NCBI GenBank assembly: GCA_000002435.2
Contig: CM018791.1
Direction: 5' to 3' (one strand)
Length of the DNA: 64,000 nucleotides
Origin: Giardia intestinalis
Taxonomy: Eukaryota
The notes under the pieces: model-generated
What the model was told of the DNA's origin: nothing
Databases searched by the model: none
The model's input: the letters and a program-made list of their open reading frames with translations, nothing else
Part shown: one piece after another, positions 11,719-58,949 of the stretch
Layout of the letters: each line of letters begins with the position of its first letter
Position numbering within the stretch: the first letter of the stretch is position 1
Program-made: the position numbers and the translations under genes

Positions 11719-11952
11719 TTAGCCGGTGGAAGATAGACTACTGACAAGCTTTAGTCCGGAGACACTCTGGTTTGGGCAGCCAATAATTTTTTAGCTGAGG
11801 ACAGCTCTGCCAGACTCTGACCCGGCTGTGGAGCTAATTATACTGGACCTGGTCAGACTGGCTACAGAGGAGGGCGTGCCGTTCCCTGCTTTTTGTTCTT
11901 TTTGAACCGGCTCAGGGGTTTTTATCACATTTTAATCTAAAATTCCAGTGTT

Positions 11953-13428
11953 ATGGGATCGTCCTCTGGCGCTCAGGGAAAGACTAAGGGGTCGTCCATC
12001 CAGGCGTACAGGAGTATCAAGATTAAGGGTGTCGTGTACAATGTCTGGCTGCGCTTTAAAACGGGGGATTTCTCTGTCCATCTTGAGAATGATGAAACTG
12101 GAGAACACTGGTTCAACGCGTTCACGCCTGAATATATAGATGAAATGACACGCAAAACGGGAAACCAACGGCGCTATGACGTATTCACAAGTATGCTGAC
12201 CTCGGCTTTGGAGAAGACAAGCTCTCGTCGGCCGAACAGTCAAACTCCTTTGGACTTAAGTCTCGATTTGCTCTTTGTGGAGGATCTCGAGCGCATGAGG
12301 GATGCGAATGGTGGGGCACACAGCGACTCTGTTGATGCAACGATCCAATCGGCTGCCAACAAGTCGCGTTGCTTCCTCATCGTGGCATACGCAGTAGAGT
12401 TTGAGCGCACCTTCTACCCTCTTCCGCTCAACAAGTCCGGACCACCGAGCACAAACCTCGAGGAATGGCTCTTATTTGCATATCGGCATACGAAGGAGCA
12501 AGCAAGACGGATGATGGAGGAAAGCAGTCTGAACGAAGGGATAGTCAGCATGAGTGGGACAGATACCCAGAAGCTTCGGACAGAGCTTAAAAAGCAGAAG
12601 GAGATAATATTTTCTCTGGAAAAGGAGCGGAACAAGGCTTTGGAAGTTTCAAAGAAACTACTAACGGAAAACAACATACTAAAGGAGCAGCTAACTCACA
12701 TCAAGGATTCTATCGTGTCCAGAACCGCCAGCAATGGAAGATCGCTAAGCCGTGACCTATCAGGTAGAACGTTGAAATCTGAATCTGCCAACACGAGGTC
12801 AACTAGACCCTATGCGGAACAGTCACACAAGAGTAGGAGCCAACGATACTACAGAGAGGGAGAGACAAGTAGACCTCCCTCGCAAACTCATTCTCGTGCA
12901 TCGAGTCGGTCTGCGAGCAATACTGCCAAAAGATCAACATCTCGTCACGTCTCAGAACAGCCTTCCCCTGCTGTGGCATCTGGGTACCTCAACCTCTCCC
13001 ATGCACGGTCACGCAGTGCATCGATTGGCAACTCGCAAACATTACGTGGATCCTATACCAGCTCGATGAGCGCTTCGCTAAACCCATTCAAGCGTACCAC
13101 ATCCACAATCTATTCTAATAGTGCGTCAGAGTTTGATGAAGGCCTCTCACAGCAGCTTGTTGAGAAGGCTAGAAGGTCTAGCAGCCGGAGCTCTGAAGGC
13201 CGCCGAAGAAAGCGGTCGTCTTCGTCACACAGGAACAGAGATTCTGTGGTTCTAGACGATTACAATGATAGAGGAAGCGGGCATCACGGATCTAGCTCCA
13301 GCAGGACTCGAACACAGAGAAGCGCTCAATATGAGGAGCCTCAAGACGATAGACACAGATCCGGAAGTGGTAGGAGGAAACACAGGAAAGAGCACTCTGG
13401 TGCATCTAGATCTGAAAAATATTATTAG
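11953..13428 (+). CDS. CCDC61: CCDC61 / VFL3 homologue (basal-body/centriole protein) with Ser/Arg-rich C-terminal tail
   Basis: The N-terminal head aligns with recalled metazoan CCDC61: W..F....I.EMTRKTGN, LDL(S)LDLL..EDLE.MR, and LIVAYAVEFERTFYPLPL versus LILIYSVEFDRIHYPLPL. A central coiled coil is followed by an RS-rich tail. Confidence 0.7.
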   Translation: MGSSSGAQGKTKGSSIQAYRSIKIKGVVYNVWLRFKTGDFSVHLENDETGEHWFNAFTPEYIDEMTRKTGNQRRYDVFTSMLTSALEKTSSRRPNSQTPLDLSLDLLFVEDLERMRDANGGAHSDSVDATIQSAANKSRCFLIVAYAVEFERTFYPLPLNKSGPPSTNLEEWLLFAYRHTKEQARRMMEESSLNEGIVSMSGTDTQKLRTELKKQKEIIFSLEKERNKALEVSKKLLTENNILKEQLTHIKDSIVSRTASNGRSLSRDLSGRTLKSESANTRSTRPYAEQSHKSRSQRYYREGETSRPPSQTHSRASSRSASNTAKRSTSRHVSEQPSPAVASGYLNLSHARSRSASIGNSQTLRGSYTSSMSASLNPFKRTTSTIYSNSASEFDEGLSQQLVEKARRSSSRSSEGRRRKRSSSSHRNRDSVVLDDYNDRGSGHHGSSSSRTRTQRSAQYEEPQDDRHRSGSGRRKHRKEHSGASRSEKYY

Positions 13429-13448
13429 ACCCTACCTTGTAAATCATC

Positions 13449-16400
13449 TCATCCGTTGGGGGGCGCTAACATGAGTATTTCGGTATTAGCCTTTCTTAGG
13501 TCTGAGATCATGCGATTGAGCTTGTGTACTTCAAGTTCCTTTGCGCGCAGATTGGCCTGCAGTATCTCTACCGTGGTCGTTGCAGCGATGTAGTTCTGAA
13601 CAGAGAGCCCCGATACGATTCTCGAATCTCTGCCCGAAAGGTCTCTAATAGTTTGGAATAATTGGCTAATAACTGTCTCATAAGCATCGCTTATTTCTCG
13701 ATGCTGCTCTACGCCGTTTAGAAAAGTTCCATTGACATCCCTGACGACAACTCGGATCTCTGGATGGCCTAGCATCTGCTCCAACTGTGCACAGGTCAGC
13801 AGATGGCGGTTTTTCATGTCCTCGTAACTCTGTTGCAGCCTCTCTAGGTCGTTAGTAAGCTCTCTGCATGTACTCTCCAAGCGGGTGACGTACAGTCCAG
13901 GGGAGCCGTTATATTCTGGCGGAACATGGATGCCCTCAATGATCTGCTTTAAGCGCGCAAGATCACGGGTAATGTTGGCACCATCAGAGTCACTGCAGTG
14001 ATCCTTGAGAGCCTTGATTTGCTGCTCTGACTTCGAGAGCTCCTGGCGCAGATGTGCATTCTCTAGCACAAGCTTCACATGAGCGTCATCAACTGCTTTA
14101 GATGTTGTGCCACGAGGTGCGAGAGCACCAAGAACGGCACACGGCGAGGTCTGCAACTGTTTGTTAGACTGATCTGTCTTCAGAGGGTGTGCAAGCATGA
14201 CAAGTCTCTCGTTATCTTCCTCGAGCTCTTTGATACGGGCCTGCAAGCCTAGCACTTCGTCATGGAGAGTCAGCTGGAGGCTTTGAAGTTCCTGCTGCTG
14301 ACCTGCAATTATAGCGGCTTGATCAGCACCTCTATTCTGTAATTCTGTACACATTTCTTGCAGTCTGCTGCAGTCGTCAGAAGCTCGCTGCATGCTCTCT
14401 AATGTCTCCCTGAGTCGCAGCTCGGCTACCTCGGCACGAGTCGTTATTGCCTTATTCTCCTCTAGACTCGCTTTGTGCTCCGATTCCAAACATTGAAGAC
14501 GCTTCTCGAGATTCAGCGCATTACACACGAGTGCGTTTTCATCATCTGTCTTAAGTGTACGAAGCTGTGTAATGATGGCTTCTAAATCCTTCTTCTCAGC
14601 GTACATAGCCTGGAATTGCTTATCAGATGAATCTTTGAGCTTTTCAAGTGCAGCCCTAAGAGATGCTGCTTCCTCCTCAAGGAGACGATGCTCTTCCAGG
14701 CTAACTGTTGTCTTGAGATGCTCCTTAAGCGCCTCGCTTGTCTTTCGTTTGAAGTCGCGAAGTTCGTCTGTGAGCTTTGTGTTGGCTCTTGAAAGCCTTT
14801 CATTCTCAGCTCGCATCCTCCAAACCTCTTGAGTAAGGGCCACGTGGGCCTGCTGTATTTCGTTTGCCTTCTGAAGTGTTACCTCTGACTCTCGTTGCTT
14901 TTCCTCTAAGGACAAGATTTTCTGTTGCATAGACACCGTGGAAAGCTGCTCGTCGCTTAGCTGCGTATACGTTGCATGCTGAGAGTAAGCATAGGCATGC
15001 AAAGTATCATACTTCTTCTGCAGTTCGACCGCCTCATTAACTGCCTTCTCCTTTTCTGCCGAGGTGTCAAGAAGCTCCTCGCTCAAAAGCCGAAGACGCT
15101 CCATCAGAGACACGTTTTCTGCTGCAAGATCTTGTGCCAAGTCATCCTTAACGACGGTCTCTCTTTCCAGGAAGTCGTGTTCCGTCTGAGTGGCTGACGA
15201 GACGGTCAGTGGCGGAGCTGGTGCTGTTTGTAATGCTTCAAGAGCGGTTTCCATAGACAGTAGCTCTCTGTTGAGACGTAAGTTTTCCTTTGTAAGTTCC
15301 TTAAGCTCATCGTTAGCCTTGGACAGCTCCTCTTTACATCTAGTGGTCTCCTGCAGGTAATCTAGGGCGTTATTTCGTGTGTCAACTAGTTGGTTCCGTA
15401 TTGCAAAGCAGTGCTCACGTTCCTGTGCAAGCTCTGCCTCTACTTTGGCAAGCGTCGCTTCTGTAGCTACAAGCTTGCTCATCGTAAGGTCGAGATCTCG
15501 AGCCGTAAGGGTTGACTGTATGTCGACGTTGGCAGCTGCTGTACATTGTGCGGCAGATTGCTGGATCTCAGTTTGAATTTCAGTTTGAATTGCCTTTTGG
15601 TCACATGCAGCCGCAACAGCCCTTGGAGTTTTTTCATTATAACCCAGATATGCATCAGTTTGTGTTGCACATTCTATACTAGCATGTGGAGCGGTTGTCT
15701 CTGTTGCAAGATGGGCCCGGGCTGCGGATGCTTCGTAGATAAAGAGCTTTCTCTCCAAGTCATTGACCTTTGCAACCAAAACATCGTTATCCTCTATAAT
15801 TGCCGAAATATTTCCTTGATTGAAAGACCGTTTAAGCTCTATGAGCATGCTTTTCAACTTCTTATTCTTTTCGCGAAGCTCACTATTCTGCTGCTCAAGC
15901 GCCTGCTGGTGGGATGCGTAATATATTTGCTGCAAATAGCTTGGTTGCGAAGAATGTGCTGATTCAACCGGTTCTCCTGTGTTCTGCTTTTTGGCTGGCA
16001 CCTGAAGATCTAAGGGGCATTCCATTAGCATATCTACCGAACCGCCTAGTGTAGTTGTCAAAGACTTGTCTTTGTCTCCATTACTACTGGCGTGGCGTGG
16101 GGGTATAATGAGGCTGTGCTGGCCGCTAACGGTGATGGTCGAAGAGCATGTCTTGCTAGCAGGCTTATGTAGTGCGGAGAGGACTGGGTTTATCGTGGAG
16201 CAATCTATAGACACTGTTTCCCCGCTATGCAATTCGTTTGCTGTGTCGATGGGCGCGGATACGGAAAGGTCTGGTAGTCGGTTAATGGGGATTGATTTCG
16301 AGCAGGGTACAACAACCGGCGAGCTCTGGCTTTCGTGTTGATCCGTTGACACACGGGTGAAGCTTTCCAATGCTGCTGTGACGTCTTCGAACCTCTCTCG

Positions 16401-17348
16401 CAGAGTGGCCATCTCTTGCTTCATGAGTTTATTGTCTCCAGTTATGGCCCAAAGAAGATTCTCAAGGGAGCTTTCGTTCTTTGTGTGGCGAAGTCGTCGC
16501 TTGATGGACGTAGCAGGCGAGGAAGAAGAGACAAAGCTGAGACGTCGGGGGCTGCATGCAGTAAGTGCCTTGGCCCGCCGCTTGCTACCAATTGTACTAC
16601 TCTTTACAAAGTGATACTTATGCTGCCGTCTGTAGAGATTGGTTAGTACACTTGCGTGGGCGGGATAGGGCCCCTTTGTGACAGATGCTATACTGGGTAT
16701 TCCGGCAACGGTGCTATTTAGGGCATGAGAGGAGGTAGACGCTGATCGCCCCTTGCAAGACGGTACCCTAGTCCCCGAAGGACCAGAGATAGATGCCCTC
16801 CTGCTGGAAGCAGAGTTGAGGGAGGTAGAGCGAGAGGAGACACTCTCTTGAATCTCTTCCAACATGGTGTAGGGCCTGTGCCGGAGTACATGCTTAGAGT
16901 CACGCTCTGCTGGCTTCTGCGAAGAAGGACGCTGGTGGCGGTCTGATGATCGAGGCCTTGCTATCTTCTTAGTATGGATAGTGAAAAGCTCCGGGGTGGC
17001 CTGCACACTCGTCAACGACGGCTGAACGGAAAAAGAAGACAGAGGGGGTGTCTGAAGACATGCCCTCAATCTGTCTATCTCTGCATTGGCAATCGCTAGC
17101 TTCTTTTCAAGGTCCACACTATGGACAAGAAGTGCCTGAGAGGCGCCCCGGAGGCACGAATATTTTGACAAAAGCATGGATACTGGAGCAGTGGATAAAT
17201 CCGAGTCGCTGTCCGAAAGAAGGGCCTGCATGTTCTTGATGGGATCCAATGTCATCTTAAAGAGAAACGAGTCTGCCGCGTCTCCAGCGCCCGTACTGCT
17301 GTCTGCAGCGCTAGGAACAGGATCTAACAAGACTCCAGAACCACACAT
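13449..17348 (-). CDS. Large coiled-coil protein (1299 aa) with Ser-rich N-terminal region
   Basis: ATG at 17348. The N-terminal approx 450 aa are S/T-rich low complexity and the rest is a continuous coiled coil. It contains a 12-bp tandem duplication (IQTEIQTEIQ). Confidence 0.75.
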   Translation of the reverse strand: MCGSGVLLDPVPSAADSSTGAGDAADSFLFKMTLDPIKNMQALLSDSDSDLSTAPVSMLLSKYSCLRGASQALLVHSVDLEKKLAIANAEIDRLRACLQTPPLSSFSVQPSLTSVQATPELFTIHTKKIARPRSSDRHQRPSSQKPAERDSKHVLRHRPYTMLEEIQESVSSRSTSLNSASSRRASISGPSGTRVPSCKGRSASTSSHALNSTVAGIPSIASVTKGPYPAHASVLTNLYRRQHKYHFVKSSTIGSKRRAKALTACSPRRLSFVSSSSPATSIKRRLRHTKNESSLENLLWAITGDNKLMKQEMATLRERFEDVTAALESFTRVSTDQHESQSSPVVVPCSKSIPINRLPDLSVSAPIDTANELHSGETVSIDCSTINPVLSALHKPASKTCSSTITVSGQHSLIIPPRHASSNGDKDKSLTTTLGGSVDMLMECPLDLQVPAKKQNTGEPVESAHSSQPSYLQQIYYASHQQALEQQNSELREKNKKLKSMLIELKRSFNQGNISAIIEDNDVLVAKVNDLERKLFIYEASAARAHLATETTAPHASIECATQTDAYLGYNEKTPRAVAAACDQKAIQTEIQTEIQQSAAQCTAAANVDIQSTLTARDLDLTMSKLVATEATLAKVEAELAQEREHCFAIRNQLVDTRNNALDYLQETTRCKEELSKANDELKELTKENLRLNRELLSMETALEALQTAPAPPLTVSSATQTEHDFLERETVVKDDLAQDLAAENVSLMERLRLLSEELLDTSAEKEKAVNEAVELQKKYDTLHAYAYSQHATYTQLSDEQLSTVSMQQKILSLEEKQRESEVTLQKANEIQQAHVALTQEVWRMRAENERLSRANTKLTDELRDFKRKTSEALKEHLKTTVSLEEHRLLEEEAASLRAALEKLKDSSDKQFQAMYAEKKDLEAIITQLRTLKTDDENALVCNALNLEKRLQCLESEHKASLEENKAITTRAEVAELRLRETLESMQRASDDCSRLQEMCTELQNRGADQAAIIAGQQQELQSLQLTLHDEVLGLQARIKELEEDNERLVMLAHPLKTDQSNKQLQTSPCAVLGALAPRGTTSKAVDDAHVKLVLENAHLRQELSKSEQQIKALKDHCSDSDGANITRDLARLKQIIEGIHVPPEYNGSPGLYVTRLESTCRELTNDLERLQQSYEDMKNRHLLTCAQLEQMLGHPEIRVVVRDVNGTFLNGVEQHREISDAYETVISQLFQTIRDLSGRDSRIVSGLSVQNYIAATTTVEILQANLRAKELEVHKLNRMISDLRKANTEILMLAPPNG
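15568..15591. repeat. 12-bp perfect tandem duplication (tcagtttgaatt x2) inside the coiled-coil CDS
   Basis: Direct inspection of the sequence. Confidence 0.6.
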
Positions 17349-22278: not shown

Positions 22279-23229
22279 ATGGACTCGCTTCTGGCGGCAA
22301 TAGCAAGCCTGCGCGAGAACCCGGGAGCGAGGGGGGTGCAGACCGATAACGTTATCCTACAGGACCGGGCTCAGGGGCTGACCACGGTTGTCCTGCGGCG
22401 CAGAGAGGCCTTAGAGTCGAAGGTTAAGAGTCTCAAGTCTCAGACACCAGATGCACTGGGATCGCCAGACCCAGCTGACCAGCTTGTGATGGCGCCACAC
22501 AATGGCCTTATACTCATCAGGAACAGATTCAACATTATGGATGTACATCTACTCCTCTGCGCTGCAGAATTCGTCCATCAACTACAGCCTCTGGTGCTGA
22601 GTGACATGGAAGTAGTGCAGCCTCTTCTAGGGCGCGGAATTTTGGCTGCGTACAATGCCGGCAAGCTATCAGGGGCCAGTCAGCCCCGCAAACACATCCA
22701 ATTGATAGGGCTTCCTTTCCTCTCCAAGAATGAGTGGAATGTCTTTCCACTGAGGGCCCTTGTAGAACGTGAGCTTTCAGACCCAGATAGATGTGATGAA
22801 CCAGCTCAACTTTCCGTGTTTGCTGGGCGGAACCACGGGGTGATTCGCTTCAAAAGACCTCCATCACCAGCGAAGCTATATGCGCATTACACCAAGCTCC
22901 TAGAATATTGCAATGCTGGTGATCTTATCACCGTCAACAAGCACGAACTCGGCCTAGGCTTCGACAGGCCCTCGGCCAGTGCGCCTGAAGATGCTAGTGA
23001 TGAGTGCATGGTACAGGTTTATCGCCGCGATTTTTCATTGCTCATTGCTGAGGAGTTCATCTTCATAGGTGTGCGCGAAACTGAAAAGCCCTTTGAAATA
23101 GGGTGTAACAGCATAAGCTACACAGGAAACCTGTTTGTTAGCAGTGATGATCAGGAGCGGACAGTCGCTGAGGTGGGGCCGTTTGCTGTGCTGGCTGCGG
23201 GTCTGGAAGAACTTCCGCCTAAAAAATAA
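22279..23229 (+). CDS. Hypothetical protein (316 aa)
   Basis: Clean ATG ORF. Its TAA stop overlaps the ATG of the first alpha-giardin (TAATG at 23227-23231). No family was recognised. Confidence 0.55.
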   Translation: MDSLLAAIASLRENPGARGVQTDNVILQDRAQGLTTVVLRRREALESKVKSLKSQTPDALGSPDPADQLVMAPHNGLILIRNRFNIMDVHLLLCAAEFVHQLQPLVLSDMEVVQPLLGRGILAAYNAGKLSGASQPRKHIQLIGLPFLSKNEWNVFPLRALVERELSDPDRCDEPAQLSVFAGRNHGVIRFKRPPSPAKLYAHYTKLLEYCNAGDLITVNKHELGLGFDRPSASAPEDASDECMVQVYRRDFSLLIAEEFIFIGVRETEKPFEIGCNSISYTGNLFVSSDDQERTVAEVGPFAVLAAGLEELPPKK

Positions 23230-24119
23230 TGTCTGCCACGGTATCCACAGTGTCCGCGGATCTTCACAAAGCAATAGATGCTGGAGACGAGGACAAGATA
23301 ACCAAGATTACTGCGTCGTATGGATCTGAGCAGCGCGATAAGATCATTCCAGCCTATCACGCAAACTATGGCATCCCTCCCTCGGAAGCCATCCGCAAAG
23401 CGTTTAAGACAGGCTTCTATGAAACAATGATTGTGCACGCGTGGACTTCACGCTTTGAGCTCCGGGCGAAATTGATTCACGAGTCTATTAAAGGGAAGAT
23501 AGATGTGATAACACTACTGGATCTGGTTATAGCTTGCATGCCTGACGACTGGTACGGCACGAAGGTCTGTTACACAAAGCTCTATGGACGCGAACTTGTT
23601 AGAGAAATAGACGAAGTGATAGGGGTGGGTACTCCTTGGCAGAGTCTTGTTTCTGGCTGGGTCAAGCATGATAGAAAGTATCGCAAGTCAATAAAGAGTG
23701 ATGCGGAGGCGTTTCGAATGGCGCTAGACAGTGACAACTACGAAGTCCTCGGAAGTATGCTTGCGACAAGTGTCCCAGATGAATGGATGCGGATTGCCGC
23801 TGCATACGAAGAGACCACTGGGATGCCTATTGACCAGGCGATTGCATCCCGGTACGTGAAGGTGGACCAGACGGCCTTAATTCTAGCACACCACTGGCTT
23901 TGCGACCCGGGCCAGGCGGCTGCGTATATCTGCTCTCAGTGTTGCGCTGAGCGCAAAGGCAACTACGCACGGATTTGTCGCTTCACCTCCATGATGTACG
24001 ACCATTGCCTGAAGTGCAAGTACGCCTACAGGGCGTATGGGTCCCTCGCAATGGATATTCGGAAATGCTTCGAGCCTAAGCTAGCAAAGCATCTGCTAGT
24101 CTTTTGGCGCGTGGAGTAG
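23229..24119 (+). CDS. Alpha-giardin (annexin-like), array copy 1
   Basis: A 296-aa four-repeat annexin-like protein clearly paralogous to the three downstream copies (shared motifs such as LI..ALSGKND...DLVI.C..EDW and C.RIT.MM.D.CLA.KYAY..YG). The start context is aaaaaataATG. Confidence 0.85.
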   Translation: MSATVSTVSADLHKAIDAGDEDKITKITASYGSEQRDKIIPAYHANYGIPPSEAIRKAFKTGFYETMIVHAWTSRFELRAKLIHESIKGKIDVITLLDLVIACMPDDWYGTKVCYTKLYGRELVREIDEVIGVGTPWQSLVSGWVKHDRKYRKSIKSDAEAFRMALDSDNYEVLGSMLATSVPDEWMRIAAAYEETTGMPIDQAIASRYVKVDQTALILAHHWLCDPGQAAAYICSQCCAERKGNYARICRFTSMMYDHCLKCKYAYRAYGSLAMDIRKCFEPKLAKHLLVFWRVE

Positions 24120-24141
24120 TCTAGAGTTTGCGCATCTCATG

Positions 24142-24147
24142 AGTAAA
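24142..24147 (+). promoter_or_regulatory. AGTAAA polyadenylation signal of alpha-giardin copy 1
   Basis: It lies 22 nt after the stop at 24119. Confidence 0.5.
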
Positions 24148-24226
24148 GGCATGGTCTACTTGCAGTTTGAAACACGGTCATAATACTTTGGATAATTTGG
24201 CAGGCATCCAAAAAATAAAACCGCAA

Positions 24227-25120
24227 ATGGTCACCACGGTCCAAGATCTTGCAGAGCAGCTGAGGCAGGCTGTCGAAAGTTCCAATGAGCAGATGATAGC
24301 AGGACTGGCTAGCGCATACAGCGGTAAAGAACGAGAGAAGGTTCTGAGGGCGTATCTGAGCGCAACAGGTACCACTGCTGCCGACGCTATTCGTAAGGCC
24401 CTCAAGAACGGCCCCACCGAGAACTTGCTCGCCTATCTTTGGGATAAGCCCGGAGATGTGCGTGCCAAACTTATCCGCAACGCGCTTTCGGGGAAGAACG
24501 ACGAAGCTGCCCTTATTGACCTTGTTATCCACTGCAGTTCTGAGGATTGGTACAATACATGCACGGAGTATACAACAGATTACAAAAGGGTTCTCAACGA
24601 CGACCTTCTTTCAGACATAGGGACAAAGGAGCAGTGGACAAAGGTTTTCAAGCACTGGATCCTCCACAAGAGGTCTGACCGCTTCGACATCGATGGAGAT
24701 GAGAAGCGCCTGGTCACAGCCATCGGCAAGAAGGACTACGACACCATTGCAGAGATGCTAGGAACCACATCGGTCAGCGAGTACGCAAACATAGTCAGGA
24801 GAGCTGAGGTAACCTTGGGCAAAACCATAGACCAGGCCCTCTCTGCGGTCTGGTCTAAGCAAGACTTGGCAGTGCTTCTAGCCGCGCACTACGAGCTCCT
24901 CCACCCGGCGCGTCTAGCCTTCCACTTGCTTAAGCAGGCGCTCGACGGCAAAAAGCCCGATGAGGCGCGCATCATACGCATCACGGCCCTTACTTTCGAC
25001 ACCTGCCTTGCGGTGAAGTATGCAGCATCCGAGGCTGGCTACGACATTGGTTCTGCATTCGCTAAGGCCCTAGATAAGCGTCTCGCTCCCCTGATTAAAA
25101 TCCTCTGGCGTGTTATGTAA
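24227..25120 (+). CDS. Alpha-giardin (annexin-like), array copy 2
   Basis: Paralogous to copy 1. The track start at 24167 is a TTG. The first ATG at 24227 gives a 297-aa product matching the family length. Confidence 0.85.
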   Translation: MVTTVQDLAEQLRQAVESSNEQMIAGLASAYSGKEREKVLRAYLSATGTTAADAIRKALKNGPTENLLAYLWDKPGDVRAKLIRNALSGKNDEAALIDLVIHCSSEDWYNTCTEYTTDYKRVLNDDLLSDIGTKEQWTKVFKHWILHKRSDRFDIDGDEKRLVTAIGKKDYDTIAEMLGTTSVSEYANIVRRAEVTLGKTIDQALSAVWSKQDLAVLLAAHYELLHPARLAFHLLKQALDGKKPDEARIIRITALTFDTCLAVKYAASEAGYDIGSAFAKALDKRLAPLIKILWRVM

Positions 25121-25140
25121 AGGCGGCTATTACGCTTTCG

Positions 25141-25147
25141 AGTAAAC
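25141..25147 (+). promoter_or_regulatory. AGTAAAC polyadenylation signal of alpha-giardin copy 2
   Basis: Canonical Giardia AGTRAAY 20 nt after the stop. Confidence 0.55.
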
Positions 25148-25318
25148 GATCTCCAGTTGTGTGAGCCAAAGGAGAAACAGTGGCCGGCTCCCTCTTTTTG
25201 TTTTCTGGCCCAGGTTCTCTAGGAGCCCATCTACGGTTTACCTGGGCTCGTATGAAGCCCTGTAAACCTTCGAACCCTTCGCATCAGTTGGTAGAGGTCT
25301 CAGGGGCAGGAAAAAATA

Positions 25319-26227
25319 ATGACGTCCACTGTTGCTCAGATATGCTCGGATCTCAAGGGGGCTATCGACAAAAAAGACGAGCTTCGAATTGCCTTCATTG
25401 CCTCTGAATATTCGTCGCCGAGTCGTCTTAAAATCGCGCAGAGCTATGAAGCAACCTACAAAACCCCGATCACTGAAGCCATCAAAAAGTCCCTGAAAGG
25501 AGGAACTGCCGAGGATTTACTGGTGAATATGTGGGTCAGTAGACATGAGCATCGCGCAGAGCTGATAAATAAAGCCCTAGGCGGTTCCAGCGACGAAGAG
25601 GCGATTCGCGAACTGGTGTTTCTCTGCAATCCTGAAGATTGGCACGAGACCGCGTCTGTTTATAACCAAAAGTATCAGAAGATCATGCAGGACGCCGTCA
25701 CAAAGGCGATTGGAAGCAAAAGTCATTGGGCAAAGCTTGTGGCAGGTTGGATGGAACACAAACGTGAAGATAGGGGGTCGGTTGAAAACGATGTCAAGTA
25801 TTTGAAGGAGCTCATAGACGCACCCGTGACGGACGGAAATGCGTTAGCGCAATTCTTTGCCAGCACAACCCCTGATGAGTACACTCAGATAGCAGACAAG
25901 TTTTGCGAAGAATATAATTTAAGCATTGATCAGGCTCTTGTGAGGCCGCTAAAGGAGAACGAAGACGATCTGGAGGCATATGCTGCTGCCCACTTTGCGC
26001 TCCACGGGCTTCCCGTCTTGGCGGCCCAACTCATCAACAAAGCATGCAGACCCAAGAACGGAAACGAGCGAAGTATCTGCAGAATAACAACCCTCATGGT
26101 TGATCAGTGCTTGGCGGCAAAGTATGCGTATAAACTCTATGGAGACATGGGGGCAGACCTGTCTCGCTGCTTTGACGAGCGAATGGCCCCTATTTTGCGC
26201 ACGCTATGGCGCGTCACAGATGCATAG
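25319..26227 (+). CDS. Alpha-giardin (annexin-like), array copy 3
   Basis: A 302-aa paralogue with the same aaaaaataATG start context as copy 1. Confidence 0.85.
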   Translation: MTSTVAQICSDLKGAIDKKDELRIAFIASEYSSPSRLKIAQSYEATYKTPITEAIKKSLKGGTAEDLLVNMWVSRHEHRAELINKALGGSSDEEAIRELVFLCNPEDWHETASVYNQKYQKIMQDAVTKAIGSKSHWAKLVAGWMEHKREDRGSVENDVKYLKELIDAPVTDGNALAQFFASTTPDEYTQIADKFCEEYNLSIDQALVRPLKENEDDLEAYAAAHFALHGLPVLAAQLINKACRPKNGNERSICRITTLMVDQCLAAKYAYKLYGDMGADLSRCFDERMAPILRTLWRVTDA

Positions 26228-26296
26228 GATAAGCGAACTCATGATGGAAATTCAAATTACCTTAAAATATATTTTCTGAGCGCTTACATTTAGAAA

Positions 26297-27187
26297 ATGC
26301 CGAAGCTATCCCAGATCGTCGCTGACATGAAGCAGGCCATCGATGCCAAGGACGAGGCCCAGATCGCGTTCATAGCGTCGGAATACTCTGCAGATGCGCG
26401 TCAGAGGATTGCGCAGGGGTACAGGGACCAATACGGCAAGGAGCTCCCCGACGACATCAAGAAGGCGCTCAAGGGCGGCTCCGAGGAGAGCCTCCTGATG
26501 GATCTCTTCAGCGATCGTCACGAGGTCCGCGCCCAGCACATCCGCGACGCGCTTTCCGGCAAGAACGACCACATGGCCTTCTTCGACACAGTCATTCTGT
26601 GCACCCCCGAAGACTGGCACGAGACCGTCGCCGCCTACACGAGGATGTTCAAGAAGCCCCTCGTCGAGGACTTCATGAAGGATGTCGGCCGCAAGGAGAA
26701 TTGGTGTCTTTTCATGGAGAAGTGGATGGCTCACGAGCGCACTAGCCGTGAAGGCAGCCCTGACGAGGAAGCAGAGAAACTGAACAAGGCGTTCAGTGAG
26801 AGCGACCACGACTACATTTCCAGCTTCATGGCTGGGGTGCCTCCCGAAGAATACAAGTCCATCAACACCAGCTTCAAGAGCCTTACAGGAAAGGGCATCG
26901 ACCAGGCCTTCGCCACCATCTATACGGGGACTGACTACTACTCCCTGTACTGCGCCCACTTTGCTCTTCTTGGCATGCACAAGCTTGCCGCCTACCTGGT
27001 CAACTGCGCCTGCAACGATAAGGGCGACGAGAAGCGCATGAGGAGGATCACGGGCATGATGGTCGACAAGTGCTTGGCTGCAAAGTATGCCTACAAGACC
27101 TACGGGAGTATGAAAGCCGACGTCGAAAGGTGCTTTGATAAGCGCATGGCTCCGATCCTCTGTACCCTCTGGCGCCTAAGGGAGTGA
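26297..27187 (+). CDS. Alpha-giardin, alpha-1/alpha-2-giardin-like (array copy 4)
   Basis: At 296 aa it is closest to the recalled alpha-1/alpha-2 giardin sequence (KELPDDIKKALKGGSEESLLMDLFSDRHEVRAQHIRDALSGKNDHMAFFDTVILCTPEDWHETVAAYTRMFKKPLVEDFMKDVGRKE, CACNDKGDEKRMRRITGMMVDKCLAAKYAYK). The exact paralogue number cannot be assigned without a database. Confidence 0.9.
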   Translation: MPKLSQIVADMKQAIDAKDEAQIAFIASEYSADARQRIAQGYRDQYGKELPDDIKKALKGGSEESLLMDLFSDRHEVRAQHIRDALSGKNDHMAFFDTVILCTPEDWHETVAAYTRMFKKPLVEDFMKDVGRKENWCLFMEKWMAHERTSREGSPDEEAEKLNKAFSESDHDYISSFMAGVPPEEYKSINTSFKSLTGKGIDQAFATIYTGTDYYSLYCAHFALLGMHKLAAYLVNCACNDKGDEKRMRRITGMMVDKCLAAKYAYKTYGSMKADVERCFDKRMAPILCTLWRLRE

Positions 27188-56528: not shown

Positions 56529-58949
56529 TCAGTTTTTCTTTCGGAAGACGAAAAACCAAACCAGCACACCCGCCACACCGCCGACGACGAGGACCACGCT
56601 GATGGCGATGCCAGAGATGGCACTAGACGAGAGGGCGGACTTTTTGGAGGTGCTGTCGTACTCCAGACATACGGGTGTGGCTGCACCCTCTGGAACCACG
56701 CAGAGGCTGCACTTGGAGATCGCCTTGTGACACGCCTTGCACGTGCTCTCGGAGAAGTAGTACCCGGCCAGGCAGTCAAAGCATACCTCCCCATGGGGGC
56801 AGGTGGCGCAGCCCTTGGAGCACGCCTTGCACGCCCCCTTCTCCAGGTAGAACCCGCTGTTGCAGGCGTTGCAGACCCCACTGCTACACATTGCGCAGTT
56901 CGTCGGGCATGTAAGGAGCGTTCCGTTGTACGTTATCCCGTACCCGGTCACGGTGCTGTCACACCAGCCGTTACTCTCCTTCGTGCAGACAGTCTTCCCG
57001 GGGAGGAGCGTGGAGGTGTAGCACCCCCCGTTGAGGCTGAAGGAGTTTGAGCTGCAAGCAGCACATCTACCGGCAGCGACATTCGCGCACGCGATGCCAG
57101 CCGCCCGCAAGCTGGAGAAGGTGCACGCCCCGTTGTTGGGGTACTCCGTGCTCTTGGCGCAGCGCGAGCAGTAGCTGGTCCCGCCCACCGTGAGCCCGCA
57201 CTCTGCACAGCTGCTGTCCTGCACGCACTGCGGGACGCACGATCCCTTGGCACCGTCGCTGTACTGCAGCCGCTTCCTGGCAGGGCAGGAGGTGCAGTCA
57301 CCGGACGCCGGTCCGCTGCACGTGGCACACTCAGAGCTGCACGGCTTGCATCCTCCCGAGCCCTCGACGTAGAACCCGTCCCTGCAGGTCTTGCACTTGG
57401 ATTCCGACTCGCAGACTGCGCAGTTGCCGAGCGTGCACGCCACGCACCTCGAGACGCCCCCCACGGTGGCCTTGTAGTACCCGGCGGAGCCCAGGCAGTC
57501 CTTCACGCACAGACCGTGGGGGTCGAGGCTGTTGCCACCGGCACACTTTGTGCATACGTTTCTGTCCTCGCACGTGTCGCAGTTGGGGTCCTTGCACTTG
57601 GTCGCCACGCACTGACTGCCGGAGAGTGTGTAGCCATACTTGCACTTCTTACAGCTCGACTCGTCACACTCAGCGCAGTTCTCCACCGCGCACCCGACGC
57701 ACTTCCCGTCCTTCAGATATGACCCGTCATCGCACGCGCAGCTGTGGACCGAGGATGAGGACCCCTTTATGCCCTTCTGCCCCTTGGGACAGCTGGCCAG
57801 GCAGCTCCTCTTATCCAGGCTCAGGTAGAGGTCGCGGCACTCCAGACACTGAAGACTACTGTCCTTCATCTCACACCTTTGGCATCCCTCTATTCCCCCG
57901 TTGGCTGAGTCCCCGCAGCGCCAGCATCCGTTGTTCTTGGTGAACACTTCATTGATTGAACTGTTGCATGCAGTACACACATTGTTTTGCACTGTCTGAC
58001 AAATCTGAGACCCTACTTGACCTGGAGCATAACTAAATAAGTAGCATCCACCATAAAACAAGAAGTATTGCCTGTTGCTATCATTCTTACAAGATGTGCA
58101 TTTTCCCGTTTCAGAATCTTTCGTACAAACATTATCAAATCCGCTAATTGACCCACAGAGGCCATTCTGAGGCACTTCTGATGAATTGGCACATTGTGTG
58201 CACAACGATTGTCCCTGTATATCTATAGTATTTCTTGGTAAACAGATACTGTTGCCAATTACACTATCTGTGGTATAACACCCAAACTGACTCCAGACGT
58301 AACCCCTAGGACAAAAGTAACAATAGCCGAGCTCGAGTCCCTTAACAGACCTACATCGAAAATCAAAAGGGCACATAAATCGTTCTGAGCATTCGCTACA
58401 GCTGGGTATAGTGTTCCCTGGCAACCTATGTTGGTTACAGTACTGACACCTATATACACCACTACTCCCGCCAAAGCCTACTATATCTCCGCAGTAGATA
58501 CAGCGTTCAGGAGAGGTCGCATTAGGGTTGGTAAAAGTTATTGGAGTATAGTACGTACTACCCTTTCCGCACTCTTGACAAATCCCATTTTCTGCACGAT
58601 CGCAAATACTTGCTTTCCATCTGCCAGACAATTCATAGCAGCCACCGTAAAATAAGAAGTAACCATTTTTACATCCTGTGCACCATCCACCTTTCGGCGA
58701 TTTAACACAACCGGCTTTATTAACTTTTTCGTCTGTAGTAGCAACACATGTGCCGTTGATGGGAACATAATCCTGGCTACACTCTGTGCAAAAAAAAGCA
58801 CCTAAGTCCACTAGGCATCTATCCTGAAGACACTGTGAGATCTTGCCTTCACAAGAATACCCAAAGCCATTGTAGTATACAAACGTTTCCTCAGAGAAAG
58901 ACCCTGCCAGAAAACAAGTCAGAATCACGATCAGCGAAGCCAAAGTCAT
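56529..58949 (-). CDS. High-cysteine membrane protein (HCMP; VSP-like Cys-rich ectodomain, not a VSP)
   Basis: Signal peptide MTLASLIVILTCFLAGSFS. It has dozens of CxxC/CxC motifs and GYY/GYF (GGCY-like) repeats. The C-terminal TM plus RKKN tail differs from the VSP CRGKA tail. ATG at 58949. Confidence 0.85.
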   Translation of the reverse strand: MTLASLIVILTCFLAGSFSEETFVYYNGFGYSCEGKISQCLQDRCLVDLGAFFCTECSQDYVPINGTCVATTDEKVNKAGCVKSPKGGWCTGCKNGYFLFYGGCYELSGRWKASICDRAENGICQECGKGSTYYTPITFTNPNATSPERCIYCGDIVGFGGSSGVYRCQYCNQHRLPGNTIPSCSECSERFMCPFDFRCRSVKGLELGYCYFCPRGYVWSQFGCYTTDSVIGNSICLPRNTIDIQGQSLCTQCANSSEVPQNGLCGSISGFDNVCTKDSETGKCTSCKNDSNRQYFLFYGGCYLFSYAPGQVGSQICQTVQNNVCTACNSSINEVFTKNNGCWRCGDSANGGIEGCQRCEMKDSSLQCLECRDLYLSLDKRSCLASCPKGQKGIKGSSSSVHSCACDDGSYLKDGKCVGCAVENCAECDESSCKKCKYGYTLSGSQCVATKCKDPNCDTCEDRNVCTKCAGGNSLDPHGLCVKDCLGSAGYYKATVGGVSRCVACTLGNCAVCESESKCKTCRDGFYVEGSGGCKPCSSECATCSGPASGDCTSCPARKRLQYSDGAKGSCVPQCVQDSSCAECGLTVGGTSYCSRCAKSTEYPNNGACTFSSLRAAGIACANVAAGRCAACSSNSFSLNGGCYTSTLLPGKTVCTKESNGWCDSTVTGYGITYNGTLLTCPTNCAMCSSGVCNACNSGFYLEKGACKACSKGCATCPHGEVCFDCLAGYYFSESTCKACHKAISKCSLCVVPEGAATPVCLEYDSTSKKSALSSSAISGIAISVVLVVGGVAGVLVWFFVFRKKN

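Follow-up and report, generated by a model that had tools for sequence, protein, structure and literature searches.

A CCDC61/VFL3 orthologue in Giardia intestinalis that ends without the C-terminal helix alpha9

Whether a gene that is still named "hypothetical protein" encodes a scaffold for structures associated with the basal body, and to which protein family it belongs, is the question raised by locus GL50803_005167 of Giardia intestinalis. The locus was examined within a stretch of 64,000 nucleotides (hereafter the window; contig CM018791.1 of GenBank assembly GCA_000002435.2), in which the gene occupies positions 11953..13428 on the plus strand. According to the list of open reading frames (ORFs), the gene is complete, with an ATG start, 491 codons, and a TAG stop, and its translation was found to be identical to the G. 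intestinalis WB protein (XP_037901775.1, UniRef D3KHB0). Alleles of 491 residues are also present in strains DH and P15, and the P15 allele (EFO64425.1) shares a 90% cluster with the GL50803_005167 protein. The original prediction, made from the letters of the window, was that this gene encodes a homologue of CCDC61/VFL3 that combines an XRCC4/SAS-6-type head and a coiled coil with a long Ser/Arg-rich tail likened to the arginine/serine (RS) domain. From the evidence presented here, we consider it likely that the gene encodes the Giardia CCDC61/VFL3 orthologue, a SAS-6 paralogue that scaffolds basal-body-associated structures.

The head domain (residues 16-167; 11998..12453, plus strand) was delimited by phmmer searches against the PDB, an AlphaFold2 (AF2) model, and Foldseek. 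When the protein was compared with all PDB chains by phmmer, residues 21-166 matched the crystallized heads of CCDC61 from zebrafish (6hxy, E = 3.9e-18; 6hxv, E = 2e-16) and human (6hxt, E = 2e-15), and every match to a non-CCDC61 family had E > 1. At the sequence level, the similarity of this region to CCDC61 chains is far beyond chance. Moreover, an exhaustive HMMER search with residues 1-200 against 1.84 billion representatives recovered 573 relatives at E <= 1e-3, including 157 at E <= 1e-10, and the relatives bearing a name (from Ciona and insects) were CCDC61. The exhaustive search was needed to reveal the family; a word-indexed homologue search gave 3 matches. In G. muris, the orthologue is GMRT_11777. 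The precomputed Pfam assignment for the GL50803_005167 protein, and for its relatives, is PF27933 (CCDC61_N). A Pfam-A scan with an older library copy lacking PF27933 returned 0 families even at E <= 10, because that library predates the newer model.

The predicted structure led to the same family. In the AF2 model, for which an alignment of 38 sequences was used, the head has a predicted local distance difference test (pLDDT) score of ~90; strands were assigned to residues 16-24, 27-36, 39-46, 52-57, 102-108, 140-148, and 151-161, and helices to residues 59-68 and 75-91 (a helix-turn-helix). The order of these elements (four strands, the helix-turn-helix, beta5, an extra helix and loop, and two further strands) is the one published for CCDC61, down to the helix/loop insertion after beta5 that is specific to the family (PMC7267773). 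In the model, this CCDC61-specific extra helix (alpha3), located between beta5 and beta6, spans residues 109-118; residues 119-139, which come next, were modelled with lower confidence. When the model was compared with the PDB by Foldseek, 7 CCDC61 chains ranked first (E of 1e-12 to 5e-10; target template modelling [TM] scores of 0.69-0.90), followed by SAS-6 (E ~1e-6) and then XLF (E ~1e-4), as one would expect of an XRCC4-superfamily protein that is orthologous to CCDC61. Compared with human and zebrafish CCDC61 (6HXT, 6HXV, and 6HXY; Ochi et al. 2020, PMC7267773), the Giardia head is homologous, with ~26-31% identity in structural alignments, and it retains the order of strands and helices, the extra helix after beta5, and the contact phenylalanine together with its pocket residues. 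The predicted homology to CCDC61/VFL3 is therefore upheld by sequence (best phmmer E = 4e-18), by family assignment, and by the seven top-ranked Foldseek chains, and both AF2 and Foldseek agree on an XRCC4/SAS-6-type fold for the head.

Given that the fold is common to the superfamily, and that SAS-6 and XLF are among the Foldseek matches, the protein might instead be SAS-6 itself or another XRCC4-superfamily paralogue (XRCC4, XLF, or PAXX). SAS-6, like CCDC61, belongs to the XRCC4 superfamily, combines a head with a parallel coiled coil, and makes head-to-head contacts by placing a phenylalanine in a pocket; SAS-6 makes ninefold rings, whereas CCDC61 makes linear filaments. However, SAS-6 was only a distant structural match to the Giardia protein, with 8-15% identity and no match at the sequence level, and neither SAS-6 nor XRCC4 chains were found by sequence in the PDB even at E <= 10. 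Foldseek E values were a million-fold better for CCDC61, with TM scores of 0.7-0.9 as opposed to 0.4-0.6, and the model contains the helix between beta5 and beta6 that is specific to CCDC61. The Pfam assignment is CCDC61_N, and the named relatives are all CCDC61. A paralogue of this kind is thus extremely improbable, and a SAS-6/XRCC4-type identity is effectively refuted by the PDB sequence search and the Foldseek ranking.

In human CCDC61, the contact between heads is centred on F128/D129, with M70 and V82 contributing the pocket (PMC7267773). According to the alignments, the equivalents of F128/D129 in Giardia are F150 and E151, whose codons lie at 12400..12405 (plus strand). F150 is nearly invariant across the aligned orthologues, and E151 represents a conservative replacement of Asp. 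Among the pocket equivalents, M81 (human M70) is invariant and L102 replaces V82. The Giardia head thus differs from those of human and zebrafish in having Glu in place of D129, and it differs also by an insert before beta5.

This insert comprises ~10 residues (RRPNSQTPLD, residues 96-105; window positions 12238-12267, plus strand) between alpha2 and beta5, and it is an observation specific to the Giardia clade: inserts of this type were seen in G. intestinalis, G. muris, and two further sequences, P0015 and P0016, and in no other aligned orthologue. P0015 and P0016 are G+C-rich, Giardia-like CCDC61 genes from raw-read assemblies, with heads 55% and 46% identical to that of G. intestinalis; the Giardia-like CCDC61 genes were located at positions 3001-4551 of L001 (SRR31929897) and 3001-4677 of L002 (SRR14944320). 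GMRT_11777, P0015, and P0016 are the closest orthologues (heads 46-57% identical), and, like G. intestinalis, they carry a contact motif of the variant form FE(R/N)T.

The identification of this gene as CCDC61/VFL3 is correct, but it was already known. McInally & Dawson 2016 (PMC4931700) enter GL50803_5167 as VFL3 in their Table 1, on homology evidence only and with localization given as "n.d.", and Ochi et al. 2020 (PMC7267773) include the P15 allele EFO64425.1 among the CCDC61 orthologues of their Table S1, as the one from Giardia. The annotation "hypothetical protein" therefore lags behind. As a separate observation, the accessions of the gene (XP_037901775, D3KHB0) are much later than those of its neighbours (XP_0017069xx, A8BI..), which suggests that the first annotation of the genome overlooked the gene and that it was included at a later date.

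Beyond the head, the coiled coil that had been predicted was recovered as two helical segments. The first stalk helix (residues 168-194, equivalent to alpha4; 12454..12534, plus strand) was assigned by DSSP in the AF2 model with a pLDDT of ~85; when taken alone, residues 168-194 did not show significant heptad periodicity. The main coiled-coil segment (residues 204-262; 12562..12738, plus strand), defined by the AF2 helix and by heptads, is basic, with an isoelectric point (pI) of 9.6; across the coiled-coil region, pI values were 9.5-9.9. The AF2 helix itself runs from 204 to 280, with lower confidence past residue 262, and this extension includes R263, R267, and R272. For residues 204-259, hydrophobic enrichment at heptad positions a and d was 0.42, compared with 0.19 +/- 0.08 in shuffled sequences (p ~0.03). 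As in human and zebrafish CCDC61, the coiled coil follows the head and is itself followed by a basic, Ser/Arg-rich, low-complexity region.

This region, a disordered tail defined by composition and by pLDDT < 50, spans residues 263-491 (12739..13425, plus strand). Its composition is 25% Ser and 16% Arg, with K+R at 19%, 45 K+R residues against 21 D+E, and a pI of 11.2. As a reference, the equivalent region in 36 other orthologues was found to have median contents of 16% Ser, 15% Arg, and 22% K+R. The description of the tail as "RS-domain-like" held for its richness in Ser and Arg and was loose with regard to the RS domain as such. When RS and SR dipeptides were counted, 23 were found in the tail, compared with 17.9 +/- 3.4 in composition-preserving shuffles (p ~0.09), and there was one RSRS run. 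Because the dipeptides match the composition, and the composition is typical for the family, the tail is not a true RS domain; it corresponds to the low-complexity region that is normal for CCDC61, with a Ser content somewhat above the usual level, rather than to a domain of the splicing type.

If the tail were a genuine RS domain, it would target the protein, in the manner of SR splicing factors, to the nucleus or to the machinery of RNA processing. In addition to the Ser and Arg contents and the dipeptide count, the modest enrichment of R-x-x-S/T motifs in the tail (17, compared with 11.0 +/- 2.6 in shuffles) may be cited for this possibility. It is nonetheless very unlikely. A Pfam scan found no RNA recognition motif (RRM) or other RNA-binding domain in the protein, the sole assignment being CCDC61_N; the RS/SR count fell short of significance, with its single RSRS run; and Giardia has very few introns. 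Moreover, CCDC61 tails of animals and protists alike have this composition, and there the region binds microtubules. In human CCDC61, both the coiled coil and the C-terminal region bind microtubules in vitro (PMC7267773). With respect to the serines of the tail, counts of protein kinase A-like and Aurora-like motifs were not significantly above those of shuffles, and several basophilic kinases are located at Giardia basal bodies (PMC4931700). Phospho-regulation at the tail serines is plausible.

Selection on the gene was assessed by comparing assemblages A and E (the latter represented by the P15 allele). The ratio of nonsynonymous to synonymous substitution rates (dN/dS) was 0.049 for the whole gene, and 0.037, 0.061, and 0.045 for the head, coiled coil, and tail, respectively. 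Head, coiled coil, and tail alike are thus under strong purifying selection, and the "disordered" tail is constrained as strongly as the folded head. The low dN/dS also indicates that 11953..13428 is a functional coding gene.

How such a protein might act in Giardia can be outlined from its homologues. As in the human, zebrafish, and Chlamydomonas proteins, two CCDC61 chains would pair through a parallel coiled coil. By homology, F150 of one head would enter a pocket formed by M81 and L102 in the head of the adjacent dimer, which would give rise to linear filaments. Tubulin, through its acidic C-terminal tails, would be bound by the basic tail and by the basic end of the coiled coil. At the eight basal bodies, the filaments may connect accessory fibres with triplet or root microtubules, and in this manner they may help to fix the position and orientation of the basal bodies.

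Several points weigh against this proposal. For the Giardia protein, filament formation, microtubule binding, and phosphorylation all rest on homology, and no localization or functional report on Giardia CCDC61 was found in the literature searched. In the alignment, most orthologues have a longer coiled coil than the Giardia protein. CCDC61 has a discontinuous basic coiled coil, in which K259, R263, R266, R268, and K270 of alpha7 bind tubulin tails (PMC7267773). When human alpha7 (KASERNLKIRVKS) was aligned by MAFFT, it was paired with RSLSRDLSG--RT, at residues 263-273 of the Giardia protein, so that ~3/5 alpha7 positions are basic in Giardia (R263/R267/R272), within a poorly aligned stretch. 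The RFDPTAY motif of most orthologues was not visible in the diplomonad sequences of the alignment. Finally, the C-terminal helix alpha9 was not detected in G. intestinalis assemblages A, B, and E, where nothing scored above shuffled sequences by hidden Markov model (HMM) and position-specific scoring matrix (PSSM). Unlike human and zebrafish CCDC61, the Giardia protein thus combines a shorter coiled coil and an only partly alignable alpha7 basic cluster with the lack of both RFDPTAY and alpha9.

In the CCDC61 family, the low-complexity region is followed by alpha9 as a well-conserved C-terminal helix (PMC7267773), and nearly all full-length orthologues terminate in ...[DE]IDARLxALQxFLK.... 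The G. intestinalis protein terminates in ...RRKHRKEHSGASRSEKYY, and the alignment shows that it ends before alpha9. The HMM and PSSM used for detection gave scores of 10-43 bits for held-out orthologues, at the extreme C-terminus. In G. muris, nothing above shuffles was detected by the same models; its protein carries 17 C-terminal residues more than that of G. intestinalis, and these are weakly alpha9-like. In P0015, a match to alpha9 was recovered at the expected place, the extreme C-terminus, although it was weak (p = 0.008); in P0016, alpha9 was seen by eye at the C-terminus. Searches for a hidden alpha9 in other frames around the gene, or in six frames of the whole window, were negative; the best six-frame match (E = 0.05) lay out of frame inside a giant ORF and was judged to be due to chance. 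Nor was there a sign of alpha9 behind an intron, given that no Giardia-type splice signals were found on the plus strand in the gene. The ending of the protein is conserved among assemblages.

Published observations on alpha9 come from two other systems. In human CCDC61, the C-terminal helix (aa 484-512) binds LRRCC1/VFL1, and its deletion reduces, but does not abolish, binding (2026 preprint, 10.64898/2026.07.08.732882). Chlamydomonas VFL3, the orthologue in a flagellate protist, localizes to the basal bodies, and striated fibres, rootlet microtubules, and a correct number of flagella all depend on it. VFL3 has both alpha8 and alpha9, whereas the Giardia protein naturally stops without alpha9. 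In the Chlamydomonas vfl3-1 allele, a stop codon removes alpha9, and the loss of this helix coincides with the vfl3-1 phenotype. Without alpha9, recruitment of Giardia CCDC61 would probably proceed through microtubule binding, through other regions of the protein, or through other partners. We tentatively suggest, as a possibility that we do not favour over its opposite, that G. intestinalis carries a naturally alpha9-less CCDC61, in which alpha9 decayed within the Giardia lineage while the other regions stayed constrained, and that the VFL1-VFL3 module of centriole rotational asymmetry may have been rewired or halved.

The loss of alpha9 might also be taken to mean that the protein, although a true CCDC61 orthologue, has been repurposed. 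Having lost the helix that binds LRRCC1/VFL1, it would no longer act as a triplet-specific factor of basal-body asymmetry and would instead serve as a general basic microtubule scaffold on cytoplasmic axonemes, the median body, or the ventral-disc nucleation zone. The absence of alpha9 from G. intestinalis A, B, and E, and its undetectability in G. muris, would fit such a change, as would the role of this helix in binding LRRCC1 in human cells and the vfl3-1 phenotype that accompanies its loss; in addition, labelling of axonemes, the median body, or the disc is seen as well for many basal-body proteins of Giardia (PMC4931700). However, the head and the residues of the dimer contact are highly conserved and strongly constrained, deletion of alpha9 in the human protein only reduces LRRCC1 binding, and the Chlamydomonas mutant shown to mislocalize was one affected in microtubule binding rather than an alpha9-specific one. 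Repurposing is therefore unlikely, and a scaffold at the basal bodies is the reading that we prefer for Giardia CCDC61.

The sequences flanking the gene were also inspected. An A/T-rich stretch, ttttatcacattttaatctaaaatt, was read at 11920..11945 (plus strand), 8-33 nt 5' of the ATG. A/T-rich stretches of such a kind serve as initiator/promoter elements in Giardia, and ttttatcacattttaatctaaaatt is a candidate promoter. Downstream, TGTAAAT was read at 13438..13444 (plus strand), 10 nt past the CCDC61 stop. It resembles the Giardia polyadenylation signal, which would be its putative role, and it sits in the 20-nt gap between the CCDC61 stop and the stop of the convergent neighbour. This neighbour (13449-17348, minus strand, from the ORF list) encodes a 1299-aa coiled-coil protein that is annotated as 'putative spindle pole protein' in WB and as 'chromosome segregation protein SMC' in strain DH; no Pfam domain was found in it. 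With the two stops only 20 nt apart, the 3' untranslated regions of both genes must overlap.

The neighbourhood had been described as rich in coiled-coil and WD40 genes, a description that was too strong. Near CCDC61 there are genes for TFIIS, a small leucine-rich repeat protein, a protein kinase, Sec20, and a sugar-proton symporter, together with the convergent 1299-aa protein, a histone-fold protein, and a WD40 protein; that is, the surroundings are mixed, with one coiled-coil and one WD40 protein. Because the genes are mixed, and the organism is a eukaryote without operons, the neighbourhood carries no functional weight.

Elsewhere in the window, a tandem array of four annexin-E1-type genes (296, 317, 302, and 296 aa) was found at 23229-27187 (plus strand). 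Three of the four were looked up and are annotated as alpha-4, alpha-5, and alpha-2 giardin, which identifies the array as the known alpha-giardin cluster. The gene preceding it, Ap4A-phosphorylase-like (22279-23229, plus strand), overlaps the start of the alpha-4 giardin ORF (23229-24119, plus strand) by 1 nt, showing how tightly the genome is packed. A single uninterrupted ORF of 6975 aa, GL50803_16544 ('hypothetical protein'), extends over 30271-51198 (plus strand), and no Pfam match was found in either half at E <= 1e-4. Further downstream, a variant-specific surface protein (VSP) gene occupies 56529-58949 on the minus strand (Pfam PF03302, E = 1.5e-84).

To an identification that was already on record, these analyses make two modest additions, namely the natural absence of alpha9 in G. 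intestinalis and the strong constraint on the "disordered" tail. Only a small number of conserved proteins break the ninefold symmetry of basal bodies and determine where flagellar roots are placed, and CCDC61/VFL3 is one of these. In Giardia, the eight basal bodies differ in their fates and accessory arrays, which makes a confirmed orthologue a reasonable starting point for studying how each of them is oriented. If the proposed decay of alpha9 within the Giardia lineage is true, Giardia would be a natural test of how CCDC61 functions without its coupling to LRRCC1, in a cell with eight differently specialized basal bodies.

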